The position numbers and the translations under genes are program-made. A stretch of 64,000 nt of DNA, from NCBI RefSeq assembly GCF_029946005.1, contig NZ_JAQSDR010000003.1, positions 2,836-66,835 of the forward strand, given 5' to 3'. Of this stretch, positions 3,214 through 14,724 are shown piece by piece. Position 1 is the first letter of the stretch. Each line of letters starts with the position of its first letter. The notes under the pieces are model-generated. The model worked only from the letters and a program-made list of their open reading frames with translations, did not search any database and had not been told where the DNA came from. Origin of the DNA: Aquabacterium sp. (GTDB lineage Bacteria > Pseudomonadota > Gammaproteobacteria > Burkholderiales > Burkholderiaceae_C).

Positions 3214-3831
3214 TCAGACCTGTTGGCGGCGCTGACGCATCGCGCCAATCAAGCCCATGCCGATGAACAGCAGCATCGTGGTGGAAGGCTCTGGCACTGC
3301 TGTGTAGTTGGCCAGGCGGCTAGTGTCGCCCCGCGTCCAAAGCGCATAGGCGTCCTGGAAGGCAGGCTGCTGGTTGTAGATGTCCAACTGGCCATAGACA
3401 AAGGGCGTGTAGGGCAGCTGGTTGCCGTCCACGAAGGGGCTGCCGCCATGGAAATCGATGTCGAGAAATTCTGACTCACCAAAAAACTCGATCACGCCCT
3501 GGCCGTGTGAGAAGGAAACGGTGGGCTGGCCTGTGTCAATCGCATCGAGCAAGTTGACGGTTTTGCCTTGGTAGCTCATCTTCAACCAGATCGCACCAGA
3601 GGCCCAGTAGCTGGTGTTGGTCAGCGTTTGCAAAGAGTAGCCCGGCAAGGCCGACGAATCAAAGCCAAACGTGTAGTGAACATCCAGCGCAGGATTGACT
3701 GCCGAGGTGCCGTCGGCGTCTGGATTGGCCAGGAACTGATACTGGTACTGGGTGGCTTGTGCCTGGCTGAACGCCGCTAACAGCACACCTGCCGCCAGGC
3801 TTTTCAAGCCTATTTTTTTCATGAATTTCAT
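3214..3831 (-). CDS. PEP-CTERM sorting domain protein
   Basis: N-terminal signal peptide (AQA-TQ); C-terminal VPEPSTTMLLFIGMGLIGAMRQRRQQV (VPEP + TM helix + basic tail). Confidence 0.9.
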   Translation of the reverse strand: MKFMKKIGLKSLAAGVLLAAFSQAQATQYQYQFLANPDADGTSAVNPALDVHYTFGFDSSALPGYSLQTLTNTSYWASGAIWLKMSYQGKTVNLLDAIDTGQPTVSFSHGQGVIEFFGESEFLDIDFHGGSPFVDGNQLPYTPFVYGQLDIYNQQPAFQDAYALWTRGDTSRLANYTAVPEPSTTMLLFIGMGLIGAMRQRRQQV

Positions 3832-3894
3832 GAAGCTCCCTGACTGATGTTGAAGGTGTCAGTGGACGCGATGGCTTGCTTTGCCGTCAACCCC

Positions 3895-4341
3895 TCATGC
3901 AGGTGCCTGCCAATCCGGGAGTTTCAGGATTTCAGTGCCCAAGAGCCTGGCGCGTCGCGCCAGCTTGAGCAGGGCGACGTCTTTGCTGATCAACCAGCGC
4001 GCGCCCACATGCAGGGCCAGGTCAATGAAAACCTGGTCATCCGGATCCCTGCACTTCAGGGGTCCACGTGGGGGCTCGTCCACCATCAGGGCGTGCTCGA
4101 ACACGGTGGTGGTTAAGGCGGGGTCAGCTTGCCAACGCGCGAACACGCTGCGCGGCCACACATGGCCCCACTCGGTCTGCATGGCGGGGCTGGCCAGCCA
4201 GCGCAATCGGCCGGCTTGCAGGGCCTCGGCCAAGGGGGATGCGGACGGGTCCTTGAACACGCGCCAGTCGAGCAGGGCGTTGGTGTCGAGGATGATGATG
4301 GGTACCTGGCCCGCTGAAGGCTCAATGGATTCGGTGTTCAT
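3895..4341 (-). CDS. PIN-domain protein (putative VapC-like nuclease)
   Basis: [23 protein letters not shown] and LISKD motifs; ATGA overlap with the mnmA stop. Confidence 0.85.
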
Positions 4342-5450
4342 GCCGCGCCGCTGATCACACCACCACCCAGGCAAATCTCTCCGTCGTACAGCACGGCCGA
4401 TTGCCCGGGTGTCACCGCCCATTGCGGCTGGGCGAAGTTCAAGCGCAGCTGCGCGTGGTCGGCGGCTTCAATCGAACAAGCCGCGTCCGCCTGCCGATAA
4501 CGCGTCTTGGCCGCACAAGGGCCCAAGGGCGGCGCATGACCTGCCACCCAGCTCAAGTCATCCGCCGTCAACGTGTGGGATTGCAGCCAGGCGTGATCGT
4601 GCCCCTGCACCACGTACAGCACATTGGCCACCATGTCCTTGCGGGCCACGAACCAGGCGTCGTGCTCACCGCCGCCGCGTGCGGCGCCTTTTTCCTTCAC
4701 GCCCCCAATGCCGATGCCTTTGCGCTGGCCCAGGGTGTAAAAACTCAAGCCCACGTGCTCGCCCAAGGTGCGGCCCCGGTCATCCAGGATCACGCCAGGC
4801 TGGTTCGACAGGTACTTGTTCAGGAATTCTCGAAACGGCCGCTCACCAATGAAGCAGATGCCGGTCGAATCCTTCTTCTTGGCATTGGGCAAGCCGATCT
4901 CAGCTGCGATGCGCCGCACCTCTGTCTTGGGCAGCTCGCCCACGGGGAACATCGTCTTGCTCAGCTGCGCCTGGTTCAGGCGGTGCAGAAAGTAGCTCTG
5001 GTCCTTCAGCGGATCCAGCCCCTTCAGCAGTTCAAACCGGCCTTCAACTTCGCGCACCCGGGCGTAGTGCCCCGTGGCGATTTTCTCGGCGCCCAGGCGC
5101 ATGGCATGGTCCAGGAAGGCCTTGAACTTGATCTCGGCATTGCACAGCACATCGGGGTTGGGTGTGCGGCCCGCCTGGTACTCGCGCAAGAAATCGGAGA
5201 AGACGCGGTCCTTGTAGTCGGCCGCGAAGTTGACGTGCTCGATCTCGATGCCCAGCACGTCGGCCACACTGGCCGCGTCCAGAAAATCCTGCCGCGTTGA
5301 GCAATATTCGCTGTCGTCGTCATCTTCCCAGTTCTTCATGAAGATGCCGACCACCTCGTGGCCCTGCTGCTTCAGCAAATGGGCGGTGACCGCCGAATCG
5401 ACGCCGCCGCTCAGGCCGACGACGATGCGCTGCGGCCGGGTGGCGCTCAT
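4338..5450 (-). CDS. mnmA: tRNA 2-thiouridine(34) synthase MnmA
   Basis: [42 protein letters not shown] and [11 protein letters not shown] motifs. Confidence 0.97.
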
Positions 5451-6001
5451 GCCGAGCGGACGGCGGCTGGCGGTGCGAAGACGCTGTCGTGGATCGTCAG
5501 GATGGACAAGGGATAGCGCACGCCCGCCAAATACGTTTCCAGGCACTCCAGCACCAGGGGGCTGCGGTGGCGCTCGGGGCAGGCGCGGATCTCGTCGGCC
5601 GTCATCCACACGGCGCGCACGATGCCTTCGTCCAATTCCAGGCTGGCGTCCGGTTCGGACACGGTGCCAAAGAAGGTCAAACGCAGGTAGGTGATGTCTT
5701 CGCCCGTGCGGGTGCGCCGAAACCGCGACATGTACATGCCCAAAAAGCCTTGGGGCGTGAACTCGCAGGCGGTCTCTTCCAGCGTCTCGCGCATCACGCC
5801 CTGCAGCGGTGATTCGCCTGGGTCGAGGTGGCCGGCCGGGTTGTTCAGCAGCAGGCCATCGCTGGTCTGCTCTTCCACCAGCAGAAAGCGACCGTCGCGC
5901 TCAACCACCGCCGCCACGGTGACGTTGGGCTTCCAGCGTTGCGAGGGAACAGGGGTGGAGCCAGCCTTGGCCTCCGCTTCCAAAATATCGGCGGTCTTCA
6001 T
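5447..6001 (-). CDS. nudJ: NUDIX hydrolase (NudJ-like)
   Basis: WKPNVTVAA, Nudix box [23 protein letters not shown] and RHRSPLV; directly upstream of mnmA with ATGA overlap, as in enterobacteria. Confidence 0.8.
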
Positions 6002-6189
6002 GAGCGCAGGATTATCCGTCAATGGTGTGTCAATGTGTGGCAATCGTGATTCTTCACAATGTGACAACGCGCACTCTCACATTTGAGGGTGCGCCCGCCA
6101 CGGTTGCACCGAGAATGGGGGATTGTTGTGTATGCTGCCGGGTTTGGCGCGAATGCCGCCTGCCGCCCCCCCCTACATTAGGAGACCGT

Positions 6190-7305
6190 ATGCTGATTGG
6201 CATACCCTTGGAGACCGCTGTCGGTGAAAGCCGCGTGGCCGTGACCCCCGAGACGGTGAAGAAATTGAAGGCGCAAGGGCACACCCTTCGCGTCCAGTCC
6301 GGCGCCGGCATCGCTGCCAGCGTGACCGACGAAGCCTATGCCGCCGCTGGCGCCGAGATCACCGACGTGGCGGGTGCCTTTGGCGCCGACATGGTGCTCA
6401 AGGTGCGTGCGCCGTTCGCCAACGAGTTGTCGCTGACCAAGCCTGGCTCGGTGGTGGTGGGCATGCTCAACCCCTTCGACAAGGCGGGCCTGCAGTCGAT
6501 GACCGACGCCAAGCTCACCGGCTTCGCGCTCGAAGCCGCGCCCCGCACCACCCGTGCGCAAAGCATGGACGTGCTGTCATCTCAGGCCAATCTGGCGGGC
6601 TACAAGGCCGTCATGATCGCCGCCGACAAGTACCAGCGCATCTTCCCGATGCTGATGACCGCTGCAGGCACCGTCAAGGCCGCCCGCGTGGTGATCCTGG
6701 GCGTGGGCGTGGCGGGCTTGCAAGCCATCGCCACGGCCAAGCGCCTGGGTGCGGTGATCGAGGCTTCCGACGTGCGTCCTTCGGTGAAGGAGCAGGTTGA
6801 GTCGCTGGGCGCAAAGTTCATCGACGTCGCTTTCGAGACTGCCGAAGAAAAAGAAGCCGCTGAAGGCGTGGGTGGCTATGCCCGCCCCATGCCCCAAAGC
6901 TGGCTGGACCGCCAGAAGGTCGAAGTGGCCAAGCGCGTGGCCAACGCCGACATCGTCATCACCACGGCCCTGATCCCCGGTCGTGCGGCCCCGGTGCTGG
7001 TGAGCGAAGACATGGTCAAGGCCATGAAGCCTGGCTCGGTCATCGTTGACCTGGCCGCAGCCCAAGGTGGCAACTGCCCCCTGACCGAAGCCAACCAGAC
7101 CGTGGTCAAGCATGGCGTGACCCTGGTGGGCGAGACCAATCTGCCCGCCCTGGTGGCCGCTGATGCGTCTGCCCTGTACGCGCGCAACGTGCTCGACTTC
7201 TTGAAGCTGGTCTTCAACAAAGAAGGCCAGTTCCACGTGGACCTGGAAGACGACATCGTCAAGGCTTGCCTGATGTGCCGCGACGGCGAACTGCTGCGCG
7301 CCTGA
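6190..7305 (+). CDS. pntAA: NAD(P) transhydrogenase subunit alpha, part 1 (dI, NAD-binding)
   Basis: MLIGIPLET...[28 protein letters not shown] and GVGVAGLQA motifs; GGAG RBS at 6181. Confidence 0.95.
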
Positions 7306-7325
7306 CGACGAGCGAGGAGACTGAC

Positions 7326-7688
7326 ATGCAACGCCAAATGCTGCGGGCCAAGCTGCACCGCGCCACCGTGACCGAGGCCGACCTGAACTACGAAGGTTCC
7401 TGCGGCATCGACGAGAACCTGCTCGAAGCCGCCGACATGAAAGAGTTCGAGTACATCGAGCTCTACAACATCAACAACGGCGAGCGCTTCTCGACCTACG
7501 TCATCAAGGCCGCGCGCGGCTCCGGCGTGATCTCGCTGAACGGCGCGGCCGCGCGCAAGGCGCATGTGGGCGACCTGCTCATCATCTGCACCTACGCGCC
7601 CATGACCGAGGCTGAAGTGGCCAGCCACAAGCCCAAGGTGGTTTTGCTCGACGAGGGCAACGCCATCAAAGAGATTCGCAAGTTCTGA
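7326..7688 (+). CDS. panD: Aspartate 1-decarboxylase
   Basis: AKLHRATVT, self-cleavage site [16 protein letters not shown] and LNGAAAR; GAGGAG RBS. Confidence 0.95.
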
Positions 7689-7714
7689 CCTCATTCAATC
7701 TATCTGGAGACACG

Positions 7715-8035
7715 ATGGAAGCCCTTGCTCAAGTCGACCATGTCGTCATCAACCTGTCCATTTTCGTGCTGGCCATTTATGTGGGCTATCACGTGGTGTG
7801 GACGGTGACACCGGCATTGCACACCCCCCTCATGGCCGTGACCAACGCGGTGTCGGCCATCGTCATCGTGGGCGCCATGCTGGCCGCCGCGCTGACCGTC
7901 ACGCCTTTGGGCAAGACCATGGGCGTGCTTGCCGTGGCGCTGGCCGCGGTCAATGTGTTTGGGGGCTTTTTGGTCACCCGCCGCATGCTCGAGATGTTCA
8001 AGAAGAAAGAAAAGAAAGCGGGAGCTGCTAAATGA
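7715..8035 (+). CDS. pntAB: NAD(P) transhydrogenase subunit alpha, part 2 (membrane)
   Basis: VTPALHTPLMAVTNAVS and NVFGGFLVTRRMLEMFKK motifs. Confidence 0.95.
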   Translation: MEALAQVDHVVINLSIFVLAIYVGYHVVWTVTPALHTPLMAVTNAVSAIVIVGAMLAAALTVTPLGKTMGVLAVALAAVNVFGGFLVTRRMLEMFKKKEKKAGAAK

Positions 8036-9489
8036 GCATGAACCTCATCGCTTTGCTCTACCTGTTCGCCTCGGTGTGTTTCATCCAGGCGCTCAAGGGC
8101 TTGAGCCACCCCACCACGTCGATCCGTGGCAACTTCTTCGGCATGGTCGGCATGACCGTGGCCGTGCTTACCACCGTGGGCCTGATCCACGGCAAGGTCA
8201 CGGCCTTGATGGCCGGTGGCTTGCACGTTGACTTCACCGAAGGCCTGGCCTGGGTGCTGGGCGCCCTGGTCGTTGGCGGCGGCGCGGGCACCATCATGGC
8301 CAAGCGCGTCGAGATGACCAAGATGCCCGAACTGGTCGCCTTCATGCACAGCATGATCGGCTTGGCGGCGGTGTTCATCGCCGTGGCCGTGGTGGCCGAA
8401 CCTTGGGCACTGCTGCAAGAGGTTGGCCCCGGCCAGCCCATCCCCACCGGCAACCGGCTTGAGTTGGTGCTGGGGGCTGCCATTGGCGCCATCACCTTCA
8501 GCGGCTCGGTCATTGCTTTTGGCAAGCTGAGCGGCAAGTACAAGTTCCGCCTGTTCCAGGGCGCGCCGGTCAGCTTCAAGGGCCAGCACATGCTGAACCT
8601 GGTGCTGGGCCTGGCCACGCTGGGCCTGGGTGGCTACTTCATGGCCACGCAAAGCATGGAAGCCTTCTTCGCCGTGCTGGCGCTGAGCTTCATCCTGGGC
8701 GTGCTGATCATCATCCCGATTGGCGGCGCCGACATGCCGGTGGTGGTGTCCATGCTGAACAGCTATTCGGGCTGGGCGGCGGCGGGCATCGGCTTCTCGC
8801 TGAACAACTCGATGCTGATCATTGCCGGATCGCTGGTGGGCTCGTCGGGCGCGATCCTGAGCTACATCATGTGCAAGGCCATGAACCGATCGTTCTTCAA
8901 CGTGATCCTGGGTGGCTTTGGTGGCGAGGCCGGTCCTGCGGCCGTGGCTGGCGCGCAGGCGCAACGTCCTGTCAAAACCGGCAGTGCCGATGACGCGGCT
9001 TTTGTCTTGGGCAATGCCGAGACCGTGATCATCGTGCCGGGCTATGGCCTGGCCGTGGCGCGTGCCCAGCACGCCGTCAAGGAACTGGCCGCCAAGCTGA
9101 CCGAAAAGGGCATCACGGTGAAGTACGCGATTCACCCCGTGGCGGGCCGCATGCCGGGCCACATGAACGTGCTGCTGGCCGAGGCCGAAGTGCCTTACGA
9201 CCAGGTGTTCGAGATGGAAGACATCAATGGCGAGTTCGGCCAGGCCGATGTGGCGATCATCCTGGGCGCCAATGACGTGGTGAACCCTGCGGCGCACACC
9301 AAGGGCAGCCCGATTTATGGCATGCCGATTTTGGAAGCGTACAAGGCCAAGACGATCATCGTGAACAAGCGCTCGATGGCGGCGGGTTATGCTGGTCTGG
9401 ACAATGAACTGTTCTACAGCGACAAGACCATGATGGTGTTTGGCGATGCCAAGAAGGTGGTTGAGGACATGGTCAAGGCGGTGGAGTGA
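8032..9489 (+). CDS. pntB: NAD(P) transhydrogenase subunit beta
   Basis: MPELVAFMHS, GGADMPVVVSMLNSYSG, HPVAGRMPGHMNVLLAEA and GANDVVNP motifs. Confidence 0.97.
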   Translation: MSMNLIALLYLFASVCFIQALKGLSHPTTSIRGNFFGMVGMTVAVLTTVGLIHGKVTALMAGGLHVDFTEGLAWVLGALVVGGGAGTIMAKRVEMTKMPELVAFMHSMIGLAAVFIAVAVVAEPWALLQEVGPGQPIPTGNRLELVLGAAIGAITFSGSVIAFGKLSGKYKFRLFQGAPVSFKGQHMLNLVLGLATLGLGGYFMATQSMEAFFAVLALSFILGVLIIIPIGGADMPVVVSMLNSYSGWAAAGIGFSLNNSMLIIAGSLVGSSGAILSYIMCKAMNRSFFNVILGGFGGEAGPAAVAGAQAQRPVKTGSADDAAFVLGNAETVIIVPGYGLAVARAQHAVKELAAKLTEKGITVKYAIHPVAGRMPGHMNVLLAEAEVPYDQVFEMEDINGEFGQADVAIILGANDVVNPAAHTKGSPIYGMPILEAYKAKTIIVNKRSMAAGYAGLDNELFYSDKTMMVFGDAKKVVEDMVKAVE

Positions 9490-9953: not shown

Positions 9954-10211
9954 TCAATGGTAGTGGTAACGCAGTTGGGCAATCAGAAGGGCATCGCCAT
10001 CAATCTTGTAGACCATGCGATGCTCGTCCGTCATTCGACGAGACCAAAACCCGGCCAGCGCGTGCTTAAGCGGTTCAGGCTTGCCAATTCCGGCAAGCGG
10101 TTCACGCTGAACTTCCTTGATTAACTTGTTGATTCGCTCAACCATGCGTTTGTCCTGTTGCTGCCAATAGACATAGTCCTCCCAGGCCGCTTCGGCAAAA
10201 ATCAGCCTCAT
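9954..10211 (-). CDS. yoeB: Txe/YoeB toxin (ribosome-dependent mRNase)
   Basis: AWEDYVYWQQQDK, GIGKPEPLKH, WSRRMTDEHRMVY and C-terminal RYHY. Confidence 0.95.
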   Translation of the reverse strand: MRLIFAEAAWEDYVYWQQQDKRMVERINKLIKEVQREPLAGIGKPEPLKHALAGFWSRRMTDEHRMVYKIDGDALLIAQLRYHYH

Positions 10212-10459
10212 TCAACCAGCTTTCGTTCAACACCGGCTCCGGTGTTCAATTGCTCAATGGCTTGCATCAGGCGCTTGGTGTTGCCAGGGCTGCGAAGCAG
10301 GTACGCCGTCTCTTCAAGGGAAGCAAAGTCTTCCAGCGAAAGCATCACGACCGACTGCTCGCCATTTCGCGTGATGATCAAGGGCTCGTGGTCGTTGCAA
10401 ACACGATCCATGGTGCTTGCCAAATTGGCTCGCGCAGATGAATAAGAGATCGCATCCAT
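10208..10459 (-). CDS. yefM: YefM/Phd antitoxin
   Basis: 83 aa: ISYSSARANLASTMDRVCNDHEPLIITR...SLEETAYLLRSP; CAGGAG RBS; overlaps the yoeB start. Confidence 0.95.
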   Translation of the reverse strand: MDAISYSSARANLASTMDRVCNDHEPLIITRNGEQSVVMLSLEDFASLEETAYLLRSPGNTKRLMQAIEQLNTGAGVERKLVE

Positions 10460-10473
10460 AGAGGCTCCTGTGT

Positions 10474-10493
10474 TGTACGTAATATTGTACAAT
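10474..10493. promoter_or_regulatory. YefM-YoeB autoregulatory operator
   Basis: Perfect palindrome ATTGTACAAT (10484-10493) plus TGTACG 12 bp away (10474). TGTACA cores spaced 12 bp apart are the known yefM-yoeB operator architecture. Confidence 0.8.
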
Positions 10494-10639: not shown

Positions 10640-11065
10640 TCATGCCCAGTTGGCGGCGATCACCGGGTTGAGGGCCGTTTGGTAGTTGGCGGGCAAGGTG
10701 GTCTGGCCTAAGGCTGGCGGTGTGAAGCTGGCCATGGCGTTGACCAGGTTGTCCACGTTGCTGGGGGTCAGCGTCTTGCCGTCGGACAACTTCACGCTTT
10801 CGACCTGGTTGGCCGCATTGGCATACCAGTTGTTGATGGTGAACTTGTCATTGTGCCGATGACGGACAGTTCCAGGTTGTTGCCGACGTGGCGCAGCCAG
10901 AGTTGGTTGGTGGTGGCCTTGCTCGTGCATCAGGGTGTCGGGGTCAGCCGCGATGTGGTGCAGGCGGGCCAGCAGGCACAGGGCCTGCCAGGGCTGTTGC
11001 GGGTGTCTTGGGGCGGGATCAGACGGTGAAACGTCTTCCGCCCTCGCAATGGCGGAGGATTGCAT
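10640..11065 (-). pseudogene. Chimeric T1SS remnant: HlyB-like ABC transporter N-terminus fused to an RTX C-terminal secretion-signal region
   Basis: 5' part ALCLLARLHHIAADPDTLMH (C39-like N-terminus of T1SS permeases). 3' part NQLWLRHVGNNLELSVIGT (alternate frame), then DKFTINNWY...QVESVKLSDGKTL...VDNLVNAMASF...PVIAANWA. Confidence 0.75.
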
Positions 11066-11177: not shown

Positions 11178-11216
11178 CCCAGTAAAAAGCCGGACAGTGT
11201 CCGGCTTTTTACTGGG
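11178..11216. terminator. Bidirectional intrinsic terminator after the T11SS cargo gene
   Basis: Perfect 18-bp inverted repeat CCCAGTAAAAAGCCGGAC-AGT-GTCCGGCTTTTTACTGGG with internal A5/T5 tracts. Confidence 0.85.
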
Positions 11217-11238: not shown

Positions 11239-12345
11239 TCACTTTGCTGACGCTGCCGTTTGTGCGTTTGGCAGCGTCTGCTGCGCCCCCAGTGACTGTT
11301 GCACCGCCAGAAACGACGCCACATCATGCACGCCGTCCCTGGTGATGTCCGAGATGCCGATCGCGCCAGCGGCCCGGACGCCGGTGAAGTTGCCGTTGAC
11401 GAAACTCTTCTCGAGAGTGGACTCGCCAGCCGTCACTCGGGTGGAACTGAAAGACGCGCCGTTGATGTTGCCGGCGGCTTGATATCCACCAGCGTGGTCA
11501 AAGTCGCCGCTCCACCGGCTGTTCCCGAAGTCCACCAACAGCGTCATGTTGGTGGTGGCTCCAAAGGCACTCACTGATTGGCCGGAGTAGGTGGCTAGAA
11601 ACCCCCCGGCGCGCAATGAGTCCATGTCTTTCAAAGAGGTCTGATAACCAAATACACCCACTTCAATGGTGCCTCGTTCAACCACATTGGGATCGATCTC
11701 GTCACCCGCGATGTATTCGGTGACGGTGTACCTTCTGTAGAAGCTGGCCTGCACATCCGCAGCCTCCACCACTTCCGATGACAAGTCGGATTCGATCAGT
11801 TGCAGGTTGGTCCGGTGGTTTTGGGCATCAGCACTGGAATATTCGGTCCCATCCAAGGTCATCCTGCCCGATTCCGACATGGGGTGGGTGCCGGTGGTCA
11901 GCGAAGTCGTTTGCAACTGGAGGGCCTGTGCGTCGAGGCTACCGGCCGTGGGAATGCCAAAAGCCGTGCCCGTCAGGCTGATGGAGTGAGGGCCATCGAA
12001 CTCAATGTGGCCTTCACCGATGCCGCCTTCGCCCTGAAATATGGTCAGGTTTGTGAAGCCGCCAAAGCCCACCAGATTCTGGTTGATGTCGGCCACCGGA
12101 GCGACGTTGGGCAAGGTGCGGTAGAGCTCCGACGTGCGGGGCAGTTGGGCCAATGGGGGCGCGCCAGCCGCTGGCGGTTCGAATTCCGTCCAGGGGCCCC
12201 AGCCATTGACGGAGTCCTGGGCGATGGTGACATCGCCATACAGCTTGACGCTGTTGAGTTGTGCGTCGGTGGCGGCACCGGCCTGACTTTGCAGAAACAG
12301 GGTGGCCACGGCCACGCTGAGTGCTTTGAGAGAGTGGTTCTTCAT
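11239..12345 (-). CDS. Exported protein with a TbpB-like C-terminal beta-barrel (putative Slam/T11SS cargo)
   Basis: Sec signal peptide (AGA-A, no lipobox Cys); C-terminal pattern ATYSG...VDFGNSRWSG...GNINGASFSS...VNGNFTGVRAAGAIG; directly downstream of a Slam-like gene. Confidence 0.65.
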   Translation of the reverse strand: MKNHSLKALSVAVATLFLQSQAGAATDAQLNSVKLYGDVTIAQDSVNGWGPWTEFEPPAAGAPPLAQLPRTSELYRTLPNVAPVADINQNLVGFGGFTNLTIFQGEGGIGEGHIEFDGPHSISLTGTAFGIPTAGSLDAQALQLQTTSLTTGTHPMSESGRMTLDGTEYSSADAQNHRTNLQLIESDLSSEVVEAADVQASFYRRYTVTEYIAGDEIDPNVVERGTIEVGVFGYQTSLKDMDSLRAGGFLATYSGQSVSAFGATTNMTLLVDFGNSRWSGDFDHAGGYQAAGNINGASFSSTRVTAGESTLEKSFVNGNFTGVRAAGAIGISDITRDGVHDVASFLAVQQSLGAQQTLPNAQTAASAK

Positions 12346-12363
12346 GATGTCGACTTCCTTACT

Positions 12364-13644
12364 TCAGTAGCTGCGGCCCAACGTGATCTGCACCAAGTTA
12401 CGGTTGTATTCGTACAAGGCGAGATTGGCTTGGTTTTGAATCATGGTGAATGTGGCTGAGCCCTGCCACTTCTCCAGCCAGCCTGTCTTGAATTGTTGGT
12501 TGGCACCGAACTCGAGTCGGTATTCGTCTTCGCGGCGCGCGACGCCATAGAAGGGCTCTGCGCCGATGTAACCACTGTGGCGCCAAGCTGCGCGGGCGAA
12601 CAGGTCGCCACCAATCCAGGCGTTCTGGCGGCCACCGAAGAAGATCTCGTAGCCGTTGTTGCTGAAGCGGTCCAGCTGGGCTTCTTCGTCGAACATGCGG
12701 GCACCGGCTTGCAGGGTCAGGCGGTTCTTGTTGTACAGGCCGCCATAGCTGAAACCGCCGGAGCTGTAATGGCTGTCGCGGCCTTGGTCGCCAGGCTGCG
12801 CGAAGTTGCGGTAGGCCAGTTGGGCATCGGCCGTGAACTCGTCGCCAGAGTTCAGGCGCCAGGTGGCCGAAGGCGACACCGAGGTGTACAGGGCCAGCTT
12901 GCGGTCGCCCAGGGTCAGGCGGTCGGCTTGGAAATTGAGGTTGCCACGCCAGTTCTTGCCCATGATCAGCGCGGGGCCGGTGGCGGCGGTGAGCACGCCC
13001 AGGTTGTATTCACTCAGCCGACCATAGCCTTTGTAGTAAACGCCGAGCTGGCTGTTCCAGCCAAAGCGGCCGGTGGATTCGCCGGAGCGCACCGGGGTGG
13101 GCGACATCCAGCTGTGGCTCACGCCGCCCTGCAGGGCATAACCGCCGTCGGCCCGCGCGGTGGAGCCGGGGTTCAGCACCAAGCCGCCAGGGAGCACGGC
13201 GTTGTCCGGGCCAGCGTTGACGTTGCTGTCGTACACGGCACCCAGAGACAGGCTGTAGTCCAGCTTGTGGGGGCGGCCAAAGTTGGCGGCTTCGTCCAGT
13301 TCAAGTTGCTTGATGAAAGACAGCACCGACAGGCGCACGGCTTCGGGGGTGGTGGGGTCGTCCAGCACCGCCTGCGCCTGGGCTTTGGCCTTGGCGAAAT
13401 TCAGGGTGCGGTAATAGGCCACGGCCACTTCCAGCCGGGCGCGGTTGAGCGTGGGGTTGGCGGCCAGGATGGTTTCCAACGTCTCGATGGCGCTGTAAGG
13501 CCGACCGGTTTCACGCTGGTAAAGGCCTTCGCGGTATTGGTCTTCCACCGACGGGGGGGCAGACTGCGCTTGGGCGTTGAGCGCGCCAAGGCAAGACAGA
13601 CCAGTTGCAATGACGACCACACGCAAAGAACAAATACCAGCCAT
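12364..13644 (-). CDS. Surface lipoprotein assembly modulator (Slam/DUF560) outer-membrane translocon
   Basis: Signal peptide, N-terminal TPR (NPTLNRARLEVAVAYY), then amphipathic beta-strands starting YDSNVNAGP, ending in an aromatic residue (LGRSY); GGAG RBS. Confidence 0.75.
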   Translation of the reverse strand: MAGICSLRVVVIATGLSCLGALNAQAQSAPPSVEDQYREGLYQRETGRPYSAIETLETILAANPTLNRARLEVAVAYYRTLNFAKAKAQAQAVLDDPTTPEAVRLSVLSFIKQLELDEAANFGRPHKLDYSLSLGAVYDSNVNAGPDNAVLPGGLVLNPGSTARADGGYALQGGVSHSWMSPTPVRSGESTGRFGWNSQLGVYYKGYGRLSEYNLGVLTAATGPALIMGKNWRGNLNFQADRLTLGDRKLALYTSVSPSATWRLNSGDEFTADAQLAYRNFAQPGDQGRDSHYSSGGFSYGGLYNKNRLTLQAGARMFDEEAQLDRFSNNGYEIFFGGRQNAWIGGDLFARAAWRHSGYIGAEPFYGVARREDEYRLEFGANQQFKTGWLEKWQGSATFTMIQNQANLALYEYNRNLVQITLGRSY

Positions 13645-13770
13645 CTGAGGAACTCCACACATCTTTAAGGGAATGAGCGCCGATTGTGGAGTTCAGCCCC
13701 CGATGTGTCGAGCCCTTGTCTGCGTGCAATTGGCGGGGTAATGCCTAGGACTCCCCGCATCCAGGGGGTG

Positions 13771-14613
13771 CTAGGTGACTCCGCTGGCCCCTTTGAGCAT
13801 TTCTTTTCGGAAGCGGTTGAGCTCTTGCACGCTGGCAAAGCTGCGACCCATGATCAGACTCATGTTGTGCAGGATGCGGTCCACGACCTTGGTTTCCCAC
13901 ACGGCGTCGAAGTTGATCTGGCGGTCCAGCCAGTGTTCCAGCCATTGCGGATCGGGCAAGCGGGACTGGATGGTGTCGCGCGGGAAGAGCTTGGTGCTGA
14001 CGTGCAGGTTGGTGGGGTGCAGGGCCTGGGCCGTGCGGCGGGCGCTGGCCATGAGCACCCCCACTTTGGCAAACGCGGCCTTGGCTTCGTCGCCAAACTT
14101 GTTGATGGCGCGTTTCATGTACCGCAGATAAGCCCCGCCGTGTCGGGCTTCGTCTTTGGCCAGGGTCTCGTAGATGGCCTTGATGACGGGCTCGGTGTGC
14201 CACTCGGCGGCGCGGCGGTACCAGTGGTTCAACCGGATCTCGCCGCAGAAGTGCAGCATCAGGGTCTCGAGCGCCGGGGCGGGATCAAAGTCGAAACGGA
14301 CCTCGTGCAACTCTTCTTCGGTGGGCACCAGTTCGGGCCGAAAGCGCCGCAGGTATTCCATCAAGACCAGTGAATGCTTTTGCTCTTCAAAGAACCACAC
14401 GCTCATGAAGGCGCAAAAGTCGCTGTCGTCGCGGTTGTCGCGCAGGAACATCTCGGTGGCGGGCAGGGCGGCCCATTCCGTGATGGCGTTCATCTTGATG
14501 GTCTGGGCTTGTTCGTCCGTCAGTTGGCTGGCGTCGAACTGGTCCCAGGGGATGTCCGTGTCCATGTTCCAGCGCACAGACTCGAGTTGCTTGAAGAGTT
14601 CAGGGTAAAGCAT
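13771..14613 (-). CDS. Ferritin-like diiron protein (acyl-ACP-desaturase-like)
   Basis: Two ExxH diiron motifs (EEQKH, DEARH) in a helical protein; GGAG RBS. Confidence 0.75.
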   Translation of the reverse strand: MLYPELFKQLESVRWNMDTDIPWDQFDASQLTDEQAQTIKMNAITEWAALPATEMFLRDNRDDSDFCAFMSVWFFEEQKHSLVLMEYLRRFRPELVPTEEELHEVRFDFDPAPALETLMLHFCGEIRLNHWYRRAAEWHTEPVIKAIYETLAKDEARHGGAYLRYMKRAINKFGDEAKAAFAKVGVLMASARRTAQALHPTNLHVSTKLFPRDTIQSRLPDPQWLEHWLDRQINFDAVWETKVVDRILHNMSLIMGRSFASVQELNRFRKEMLKGASGVT

Positions 14614-14724
14614 GGTGATCTCCAAATACTGCGAACAGCCTACCCGACAATTTTGACAATGTGGCTGCAATGCAGACGGCGGCATGGGTTTGTGGTGTGA
14701 TGTGATTCCCCACTTCGAAAGGTC

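Follow-up and report, generated by a model that had tools for sequence, protein, structure and literature searches.

A divergent Slam-like secretion pair in Aquabacterium and a possible proteolytic release of its cargo

The Locus and a Divergent Branch of Slam-Like Proteins

Contig NZ_JAQSDR010000003.1 of Aquabacterium sp. carries, within the 64,000 nucleotides that we analyzed (the window), two adjacent minus-strand genes. One encodes a predicted outer-membrane protein related to the Slam translocons of the type 11 secretion system (T11SS), and the other an exported protein, the cargo, that it would carry to the cell surface. We hold it very probable that these genes form a two-gene T11SS (Slam-like) secretion unit with a non-lipidated cargo, export of which is predicted to depend on the outer-membrane protein. 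A second proposal, which in our estimation could fall either way, is that the cargo is a surface protein tethered by its N-terminus and released by proteolysis, not a freely secreted scavenger of metal or heme. Type 11 secretion was recognized recently and is poorly understood. The features on which the discussion depends are as follows.

13683..13711, minus strand: TCGACA-17-CACAAT, a weak match to a sigma-70-like promoter ahead of the outer-membrane gene
12364..13644, minus strand: gene for the Slam-like (T11SS-type) outer-membrane protein, 426 amino acids (aa) from the likely start at 13644
12354..12360, minus strand: ribosome-binding site AAGGAAG, within the 18-nt intergenic gap
11239..12345, minus strand: gene of the non-lipidated cargo, 368 aa, with a handle and an 8-strand barrel of the TbpB fold
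12268..12345, minus strand: predicted Sec signal peptide of the cargo, residues 1 to ~26 (...QSQAGA/A), read from the sequence and the family alignment (A2)
12163..12267, minus strand: N-terminal module, residues 27-61 (...VKLYGDVTIAQDSVNGWGPWTEFEPPAAG), where conservation within the family is highest
12163..12174, minus strand: PAAG, residues 58-61, candidate LapG/BTLCP di-alanine cleavage site, from motif and conservation
12079..12162, minus strand: Pro-rich linker, residues 62-89, with conserved LYRxLP, candidate membrane-spanning tether
11641..12078, minus strand: hypervariable beta-rich handle, residues 90-235, from the A2 alignment and the AlphaFold2 (AF2) model
11290..11598, minus strand: C-terminal 8-strand TbpB-like barrel, residues 250-352, expected to direct the cargo to the T11SS
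~11184..11210, minus strand: intrinsic terminator hairpin at the end of the two-gene unit, folding energy -33.1 kcal/mol, z -5.7

The open reading frame (ORF) of the outer-membrane gene opens at 13662 (12364-13662, 432 aa, minus strand). Its second ATG, at 13644, lies 9 nt downstream of a GGAG and gives a protein of 426 aa, the length of the closest homologues, and for these reasons 13644, not 13662, is likely to be the true start; it is also the end coordinate given in the original prediction. Upstream, the sigma-70-like match is the only one found where 0.6 would be expected. The gap between the two genes is exactly 18 nt (agtaaggaagtcgacatc). The hairpin that closes the unit, AAAAAGCCGGAC-ACU-GUCCGGCUUUUU, lies 29 nt past the cargo stop codon, and none of 200 shuffled sequences folded as well; a simple terminator scan missed it because its U-run pairs with an A-run, and the terminator was recovered by folding. 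Since the order of outer-membrane gene followed by cargo gene, on the same strand, recurs in every related locus examined, the adjacency is, to judge from these comparisons, not a matter of chance.

The outer-membrane protein carries a Sec signal peptide, and its AF2 model (predicted local distance difference test [pLDDT] 88.6) consists of four tetratricopeptide repeat (TPR) helices, i.e., two TPRs, followed by a long helix and 14 strands; in the 432-aa numbering the helices span ~39-128 and the barrel 132-431. This is, as modeled, the architecture of the Slam proteins. The protein nevertheless lacks a match to PF04575 (SlipAM/DUF560) even at E<=1 in the Pfam scan, and nothing in the whole genome exceeds the cut-off of that model, the best score being 11.7 bits in an unrelated TonB receptor. 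The TPR_Slam model (PF24575) gives a sub-threshold 22.8 bits against a cut-off of 35.2. An alignment of 36 homologues (A1; 37-89% identity, the named ones mostly from Aquabacterium with some from Rubrivivax and Sulfuricella) is more informative: TPR_Slam is matched in all 36 members, DUF2860 in 19, and SlipAM in 13, the last always below threshold (best E 9e-4).

The relationship is seen most clearly when families are compared as profiles. Genuine DUF560 proteins were gathered from 400 genomes of the class, and ten of them, scoring 66-360 bits against PF04575, were aligned. Over the full length, hhalign matched A1 to this set with 99.9% probability (E 3e-31) across 366 columns that include the TPRs and the whole barrel. 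The barrel alone gave 99.1% (E 7e-19) and the TPR region alone 98.1% (E 6e-14), while the controls failed, column-shuffled alignments returning E values of 0.35-0.7 and the reversed alignment 0.008. A tree of the outer-membrane proteins places the DUF560-positive protein L015 as sister to the subfamily with 100/100 support. On these sequence comparisons the protein is a true but very divergent, full-length member of the DUF560 superfamily that the Pfam model does not see.

The cargo begins with the signal peptide MKNHSLKALSVAVATLFLQSQAGA/A and has no lipobox, since the protein contains no cysteine at all; the A2 family alignment has no cysteine at that position either. Its C-terminal barrel (250-352) is modeled with pLDDT >90. 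Scores for TbpB_B_D (PF01298; 18.4 bits against a cut-off of 26) and slam_lipo (NF041636; 21.3 against 80) are both sub-threshold in the cargo itself, and PF01298 is present in 22 of 47 cargo homologues. Searched against the PDB, the A2 family profile retrieves hemophilin (E 2.6e-5), LbpB, NHBA, and TbpB, and in Foldseek all of the top 50 matches of the cargo model are Slam substrates (TbpB C-lobe, fHbp, HphA, and NHBA), with E values down to 5e-8. The handle is hypervariable, its profile (A2_M) matching the closest relatives only.

Much of this had been anticipated. The original prediction described a TPR and beta-barrel outer-membrane gene 18 bp upstream of an exported protein that has no lipobox, ends in a TbpB-like barrel, and is closed by a strong terminator; the models, the Foldseek matches, the missing cysteine, the measured gap on the minus strand, and the folded hairpin agree with it on every one of these points, as does the structure prediction in which the 8-strand barrel appears. 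Its reading of the genes as a Slam/T11SS pair gains support from the profile-profile homology to DUF560. It had also let that reading fall if the outer-membrane gene lacked a DUF560 match; there is none, and we judge that test too strict given what hhalign detects. For PF01298 the expected match is wanting in the cargo and present among the homologues.

The N-Terminal Module and Its Protease Neighbors

The most conserved portion of the cargo family is neither the barrel nor the handle. In A2, conservation peaks at residues ~33-61, straight after the signal peptide (VKLYGDVTIAQDSVxxWGPWTEFEPPAAG), and Y36, V39, I41, A42, D44, S45, W49, G50, W52, E56, and A60 are invariant. The original prediction had found the stretch VTIAQDSVNGWGPWTEFEPPAAG unrecognizable; it is the signature of the family, and it ends in a LapG-type PAAG motif. 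In the AF2 model, residues 28-83 are disordered (pLDDT <50), and the module may fold only on a partner. Among 34 A2 sequences the site reads PAAG in 28, TAAG in two, PAAA in two, and PSAG in two, so that 30 of the 34 have PAAG or TAAG. These are forms known from LapG-type BTLCP proteases, which cut at [T/A/P]AA[G/V]; in Vibrio cholerae FrhA, LapG cleaves at PAAG and a change to PRRG blocks cleavage (PMC6890996).

A 63-position profile of the N-terminal segment, searched against 1.84 billion representative proteins, matched only 126 clusters (50% identity), 101 of them at E<=1e-10. The segment lies directly behind the signal peptide in almost all 126, and a TbpB-like barrel is present in 98 of 101 full-length representatives that carry it. 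Where the WGxW anchor could be located (111 representatives), AAG stands at the site in 95. The 40 residues that follow the site are 15% proline, versus 5.7% overall.

What links the motif to a protease is gene order in relatives. A Peptidase_C93/BTLCP gene (PF06035, 65-75 bits) lies beside the pair in all eight loci from outside the Aquabacterium-type clade (L022, L057, L058, L059, L060, L061, L091, and L092). In seven of these it is divergently oriented, upstream of the outer-membrane gene by a few hundred bases, and L092 has it convergent, downstream of the cargo. When equal flanks of +-1.5 kb were compared, BTLCP genes were found at 6/7 subfamily loci from other genera, at 0/20 canonical DUF560 loci, and at 0/22 more distant matches. 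At three loci (L022, L060, and L091) the protease is accompanied by a membrane PAS-HD-GYP protein of the DvhD type; DvhD, which has a periplasmic domain, a PAS domain, and an inactive HD-GYP domain, is a proven receptor for cyclic di-GMP (c-di-GMP) and the partner of the BTLCP DvhG (PMC10990149). For the cargo family as a whole, we think it probable that cargo and BTLCP are functionally coupled. A full-text search of the literature found no paper linking LapG/BTLCP with T11SS or a Slam cargo.

The T11SS-linked proteases form a tight subgroup (L022 4662-5423, L057 9518-10195, L058 9941-10639, L059 7094-7741, L060 3193-3918, and L061 6821-7492), marked by the extension LFGYKESEH..FPQW at the N-terminus, two additional cysteines, and the C-terminal ending HWWMHxP, and are clearly distinct from the canonical LapG of the Aquabacterium genome. 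One further locus shows the module in near isolation. The genome of L022/L056 has a second copy, L062. Behind its Slam-like gene stands a 100-aa ORF (7054-7356) that encodes nothing but a signal peptide, the PAAG-containing N-terminal module, and a poly-Pro tail, and after this ORF comes a separate PEP-CTERM protein; the ORF represents a mini-protein or else a cargo that has been broken. Near further loci (L060 and L090), PEP-CTERM proteins recur.

Tethering and Release of the Cargo

Because the cargo family combines the PAAG module with BTLCP linkage, and at three loci with a c-di-GMP receptor, we suggest that the protein is tethered and released under control and not simply secreted. Once exported by Sec, the cargo would be directed to the Slam-like barrel by its own C-terminal barrel, and handle and barrel would reach the cell surface. 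The N-terminal module of ~35 residues would stay in the periplasm, perhaps held by the TPR domain or simply failing to pass, with the Pro-rich linker spanning the pore of the outer-membrane barrel. A cysteine protease of the LapG family would then cut the conserved PAA|G and so release the protein.

The Aquabacterium genome itself has exactly one BTLCP (PF06035), a canonical LapG on another contig (C37), where its neighbors are a LapD-type receptor (LapD_MoxY_N-GGDEF-EAL), a TolC-like outer-membrane efflux protein (OEP), an HlyD protein, and an ABC transporter. As the single BTLCP in the genome, this LapG is the sole candidate protease, and the cut would be left to it in trans, under the ordinary c-di-GMP/LapD switch. 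We regard LapG-dependent release in this particular genome as possible, although somewhat doubtful. Carried a step further, and put forward quite tentatively, the proposal would have one canonical LapD/LapG switch control in trans a type 11 substrate beside its type I secretion system (T1SS) adhesin. The ~35-residue PAAG peptide would then be a minimal retention module on the periplasmic side of the Slam-like barrel, possibly TPR-held, with the Pro-rich linker in the pore, and the lineage would have switched from a dedicated DvhG/DvhD-type pair to LapG/LapD.

The cluster on C37 (L076 7733-16104) is a complete canonical Lap-type cluster with a LapBCE-like T1SS, encoding the OEP (633 aa), LapG (238), LapD (637), HlyD (480), and the ABC transporter (734 aa). 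The OEP has a Cds6_C/NTF2-like tail and the transporter a C39-like domain; a LapA-like adhesin was not located.

The phylogeny bears on how the linkage may have been lost. The named closest homologues of the pair are from Aquabacterium (Burkholderiales, Sphaerotilaceae), and in the Aquabacterium-type clade (the window, L023, L025, L089, and L090) no protease or receptor gene is adjacent. In the outer-membrane tree, rooted with canonical DUF560 proteins, this unlinked clade is monophyletic (100/100) and nests among the protease-linked branches, grouping with L057 and L059 at 93/99. A single loss of protease linkage is the simplest history to be read from these sequences, and the tree is no proof of it.

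Several observations weigh against tethering and LapG-dependent release. The window has no BTLCP or c-di-GMP receptor gene beside the pair. LapG and DvhG are reported to act mainly on their own adhesins (PMC10990149), and the sequence upstream of the core motif differs between Aquabacterium-type and protease-linked cargos, so that cleavage by the canonical LapG is not assured. A few Aquabacterium-type members have lost the di-alanine (TASG and PSAG). The module is only ~35 residues long and modeled with pLDDT <50, unlike the folded retention module of LapA. Nor does co-occurrence within the genus help. Among 24 other genomes of the genus (the genome surveys being samples) the cargo is accessory, found in 12, and all 12 also have LapG; LapG is present in 22 of the 24, and we therefore set this co-occurrence aside as uninformative.

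The alternative that fares best is that the cargo is freely secreted and soluble, a hemophilin-type protein that binds a small ligand or metal, with an N-terminal segment that is a vestige or an aid to folding or export and goes uncleaved here. T11SS cargos that are soluble and unlipidated are well known (HphA, HrpC, and Hpl; PMC12282271), hemophilin is the best PDB sequence match of the cargo profile, and in this genus no protease is linked and the di-alanine is lost in some members of the clade. A vestige would be expected to decay, however, and within the genus no part of the protein is as conserved as the N-terminal module with its PAAG, in contrast to the hypervariable handle. Moreover, no TonB receptor, heme gene, or metal gene is nearby, and the A2 alignment of the handle shows no evident conserved pattern of His/Tyr ligands. 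On balance we consider free secretion rather unlikely.

These same observations bear on function. The original prediction was right that no TonB receptor neighbors the pair: there is none on the whole 75-kb contig (C3), and the 12 PF00593 matches in the genome are all on other contigs. A link of the pair to such a receptor was accordingly rejected. The lack of TonB receptor, heme, or metal genes nearby, together with the hypervariable handle, argues against a hemophore and is compatible with an adhesin-like surface protein. Because the exposed handle is hypervariable, and by analogy to LapA and CdrA, we favor an adhesin-like or surface-interaction role over the capture of heme or metal. Heme or metal scavenging found no support in the analysis. 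Its identification of a T11SS cargo stands, and the free secretion it attached to that cargo is less well supported, given the PAAG motif and the BTLCP linkage in relatives.

Another alternative has the TPR domain recognize the N-terminal module as a propeptide or as a signal for export or targeting, the BTLCP serving as a maturation protease and not as a release switch. TPR domains do bind peptides in extended form, the module is both short and disordered, and the protease linkage and cleavage motif fit maturation just as well as release. In characterized T11SS, though, it is the C-terminal barrel that acts as the targeting element (PMC12282271), the receptor linked at the relatives' loci belongs to the DvhD type, a gatekeeper of adhesin release, and the Pro-rich linker past the site suits a membrane-spanning tether, all of which lead us to think maturation improbable. 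Finally, that the outer-membrane protein is an unrelated porin-like barrel whose place beside a TbpB-fold protein has no meaning for secretion would suit its missing PF04575 match and its best PDB fold matches, generic 14- to 18-strand barrels (OmpG, CymA, and Occ), but such generic fold matches are to be expected, since the PDB sequence-profile search yielded TPR proteins only and no Slam entry and the fold search no Slam among the matches listed, and with full-length profile homology to DUF560 whose controls fail, TPR_Slam in all family members, and a gene order invariant across orders, we find this reading scarcely credible.

Neighborhood, Known Systems, and Implications

The genes around the pair offer no obvious partner. 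Upstream lie a ferritin-like gene, a glutathione peroxidase gene, and a cyclopropane-fatty-acid operon; downstream are a gene remnant and a YefM-YoeB toxin-antitoxin pair, and pntAA/AB/B flank the unit on one side. The ferritin-like or diiron protein (304 aa, 13771-14685, minus strand) is co-oriented, lies 108 nt upstream of the pair, and has weak AurF, FA_desaturase_2, and EncFtn matches. It was considered as a functional partner and rejected: its synteny is confined to the genus, where the rest of the neighborhood is shared as well, and the gene is absent from L022, L057-L061, and L089-L092.

Between the remnant and the pnt operon, YefM (10208-10492) and YoeB (9954-10211) form a type II toxin-antitoxin system (window 9954-10492, minus strand) that occupies the lowest-GC stretch of the window (0.58). 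The remnant, a 141-aa ORF at 10640-11065 (minus strand), is the product of a deletion that fused parts of two genes, namely the ~48 starting codons of a T1SS ABC-transporter gene and the last ~95 codons of an RTX (HCBP_related) gene. A close relative, L025, retains an intact ABC-HlyD-RTX cluster after the cargo gene (3269-9192; RTX protein of 668 aa), so that ~5.7 kb has been lost from the window. The L025 RTX protein ends (9100-9192) in ...AFTPPAAGQTTLP..., another PAAG, near the C-terminus, that may be compared with the C-terminal LapG site of CdrA. In the window, the remnant at ~10700-10720 reads PPALG where the L025 protein has PAAG, which may be coincidence.

A T11SS pair is by itself an already-known kind of system. 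The soluble-cargo systems of this type, with which the pair is best compared, are Acinetobacter HsmA-HphA, Xenorhabdus HrpB-HrpC, and Haemophilus Hpl (DUF560; Grossman et al. 2021, 2025). They share with it a single outer-membrane protein that joins a 14-strand barrel to periplasmic TPRs, and a neighboring Sec-exported, unlipidated cargo built of a handle and a C-terminal 8-strand TbpB-like barrel. The pair differs in that its outer-membrane protein falls below the Pfam DUF560 threshold, in that there is no TonB receptor or heme gene, and in the conserved N-terminal LapG-type module, of which our literature search found no description for any T11SS cargo. Neisseria Slam1 and Slam2, which serve TbpB, LbpB, fHbp, and HpuA, have a homologous translocon architecture, and the cargo barrel matches the TbpB C-lobe and fHbp. 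A lipid at the N-terminus anchors the Neisseria cargos, which are lipoproteins; the Aquabacterium cargo lacks cysteine, and we propose a cleavable peptide as its anchor. To our knowledge, verified T11SS cargos come only from animal-associated cluster 1 systems, and we know of no mechanism for the surface retention of a non-lipidated T11SS cargo.

Such retention does have a likeness in the LapA-LapG-LapD system of Pseudomonas fluorescens (T1SS) and the CdrA-CdrB-LapG system of P. aeruginosa (type Vb secretion, T5b). There, an adhesin remains in its outer-membrane channel until a periplasmic BTLCP, controlled by a c-di-GMP receptor, frees it by cutting at [T/A/P]AA[G/V], much as we propose for the cargo, and the Aquabacterium genome possesses the same canonical LapG-LapD pair. 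The differences are nevertheless substantial: the secretion route would be T11SS, not T1SS or T5b; the mature cargo is ~340 aa and not thousands; the ~35-residue module is disordered and not a folded plug; and the protease is unlinked in this genome. The DvhG-DvhD pair of Desulfovibrio vulgaris (PMC10990149) resembles the BTLCP and PAS-HD-GYP membrane protein of L022, L060, and L091, but such a pair is absent from this window and genome, and the D. vulgaris target is a giant T1SS adhesin.

What the original prediction had singled out, a non-lipidated cargo, no TonB receptor, and an environmental host, can be found in earlier work, in which nine of ten DUF560 clusters are uncharacterized and come from water and soil organisms (PMC8406197). 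What is new is an outer-membrane branch that the DUF560 model does not detect and a LapG-type cleavage module on a T11SS cargo. Slam-like translocons reach beyond the Pfam DUF560 model, and surveys based on InterPro or Pfam probably miss them. The compact cargo family (~126 clusters at 50% identity) that carries the LapG-type module is usually found beside a BTLCP and sometimes with a c-di-GMP receptor as well. If our proposal is correct, inside-out control of the LapG type would extend to a third secretion system, after T1SS (LapA) and T5b (CdrA), and the cargo would be a very small and tractable model substrate for threading through a Slam barrel. The window offers a direct test of protease-substrate specificity, since here the dedicated protease is not linked to the pair and the canonical LapG/LapD alone is left.

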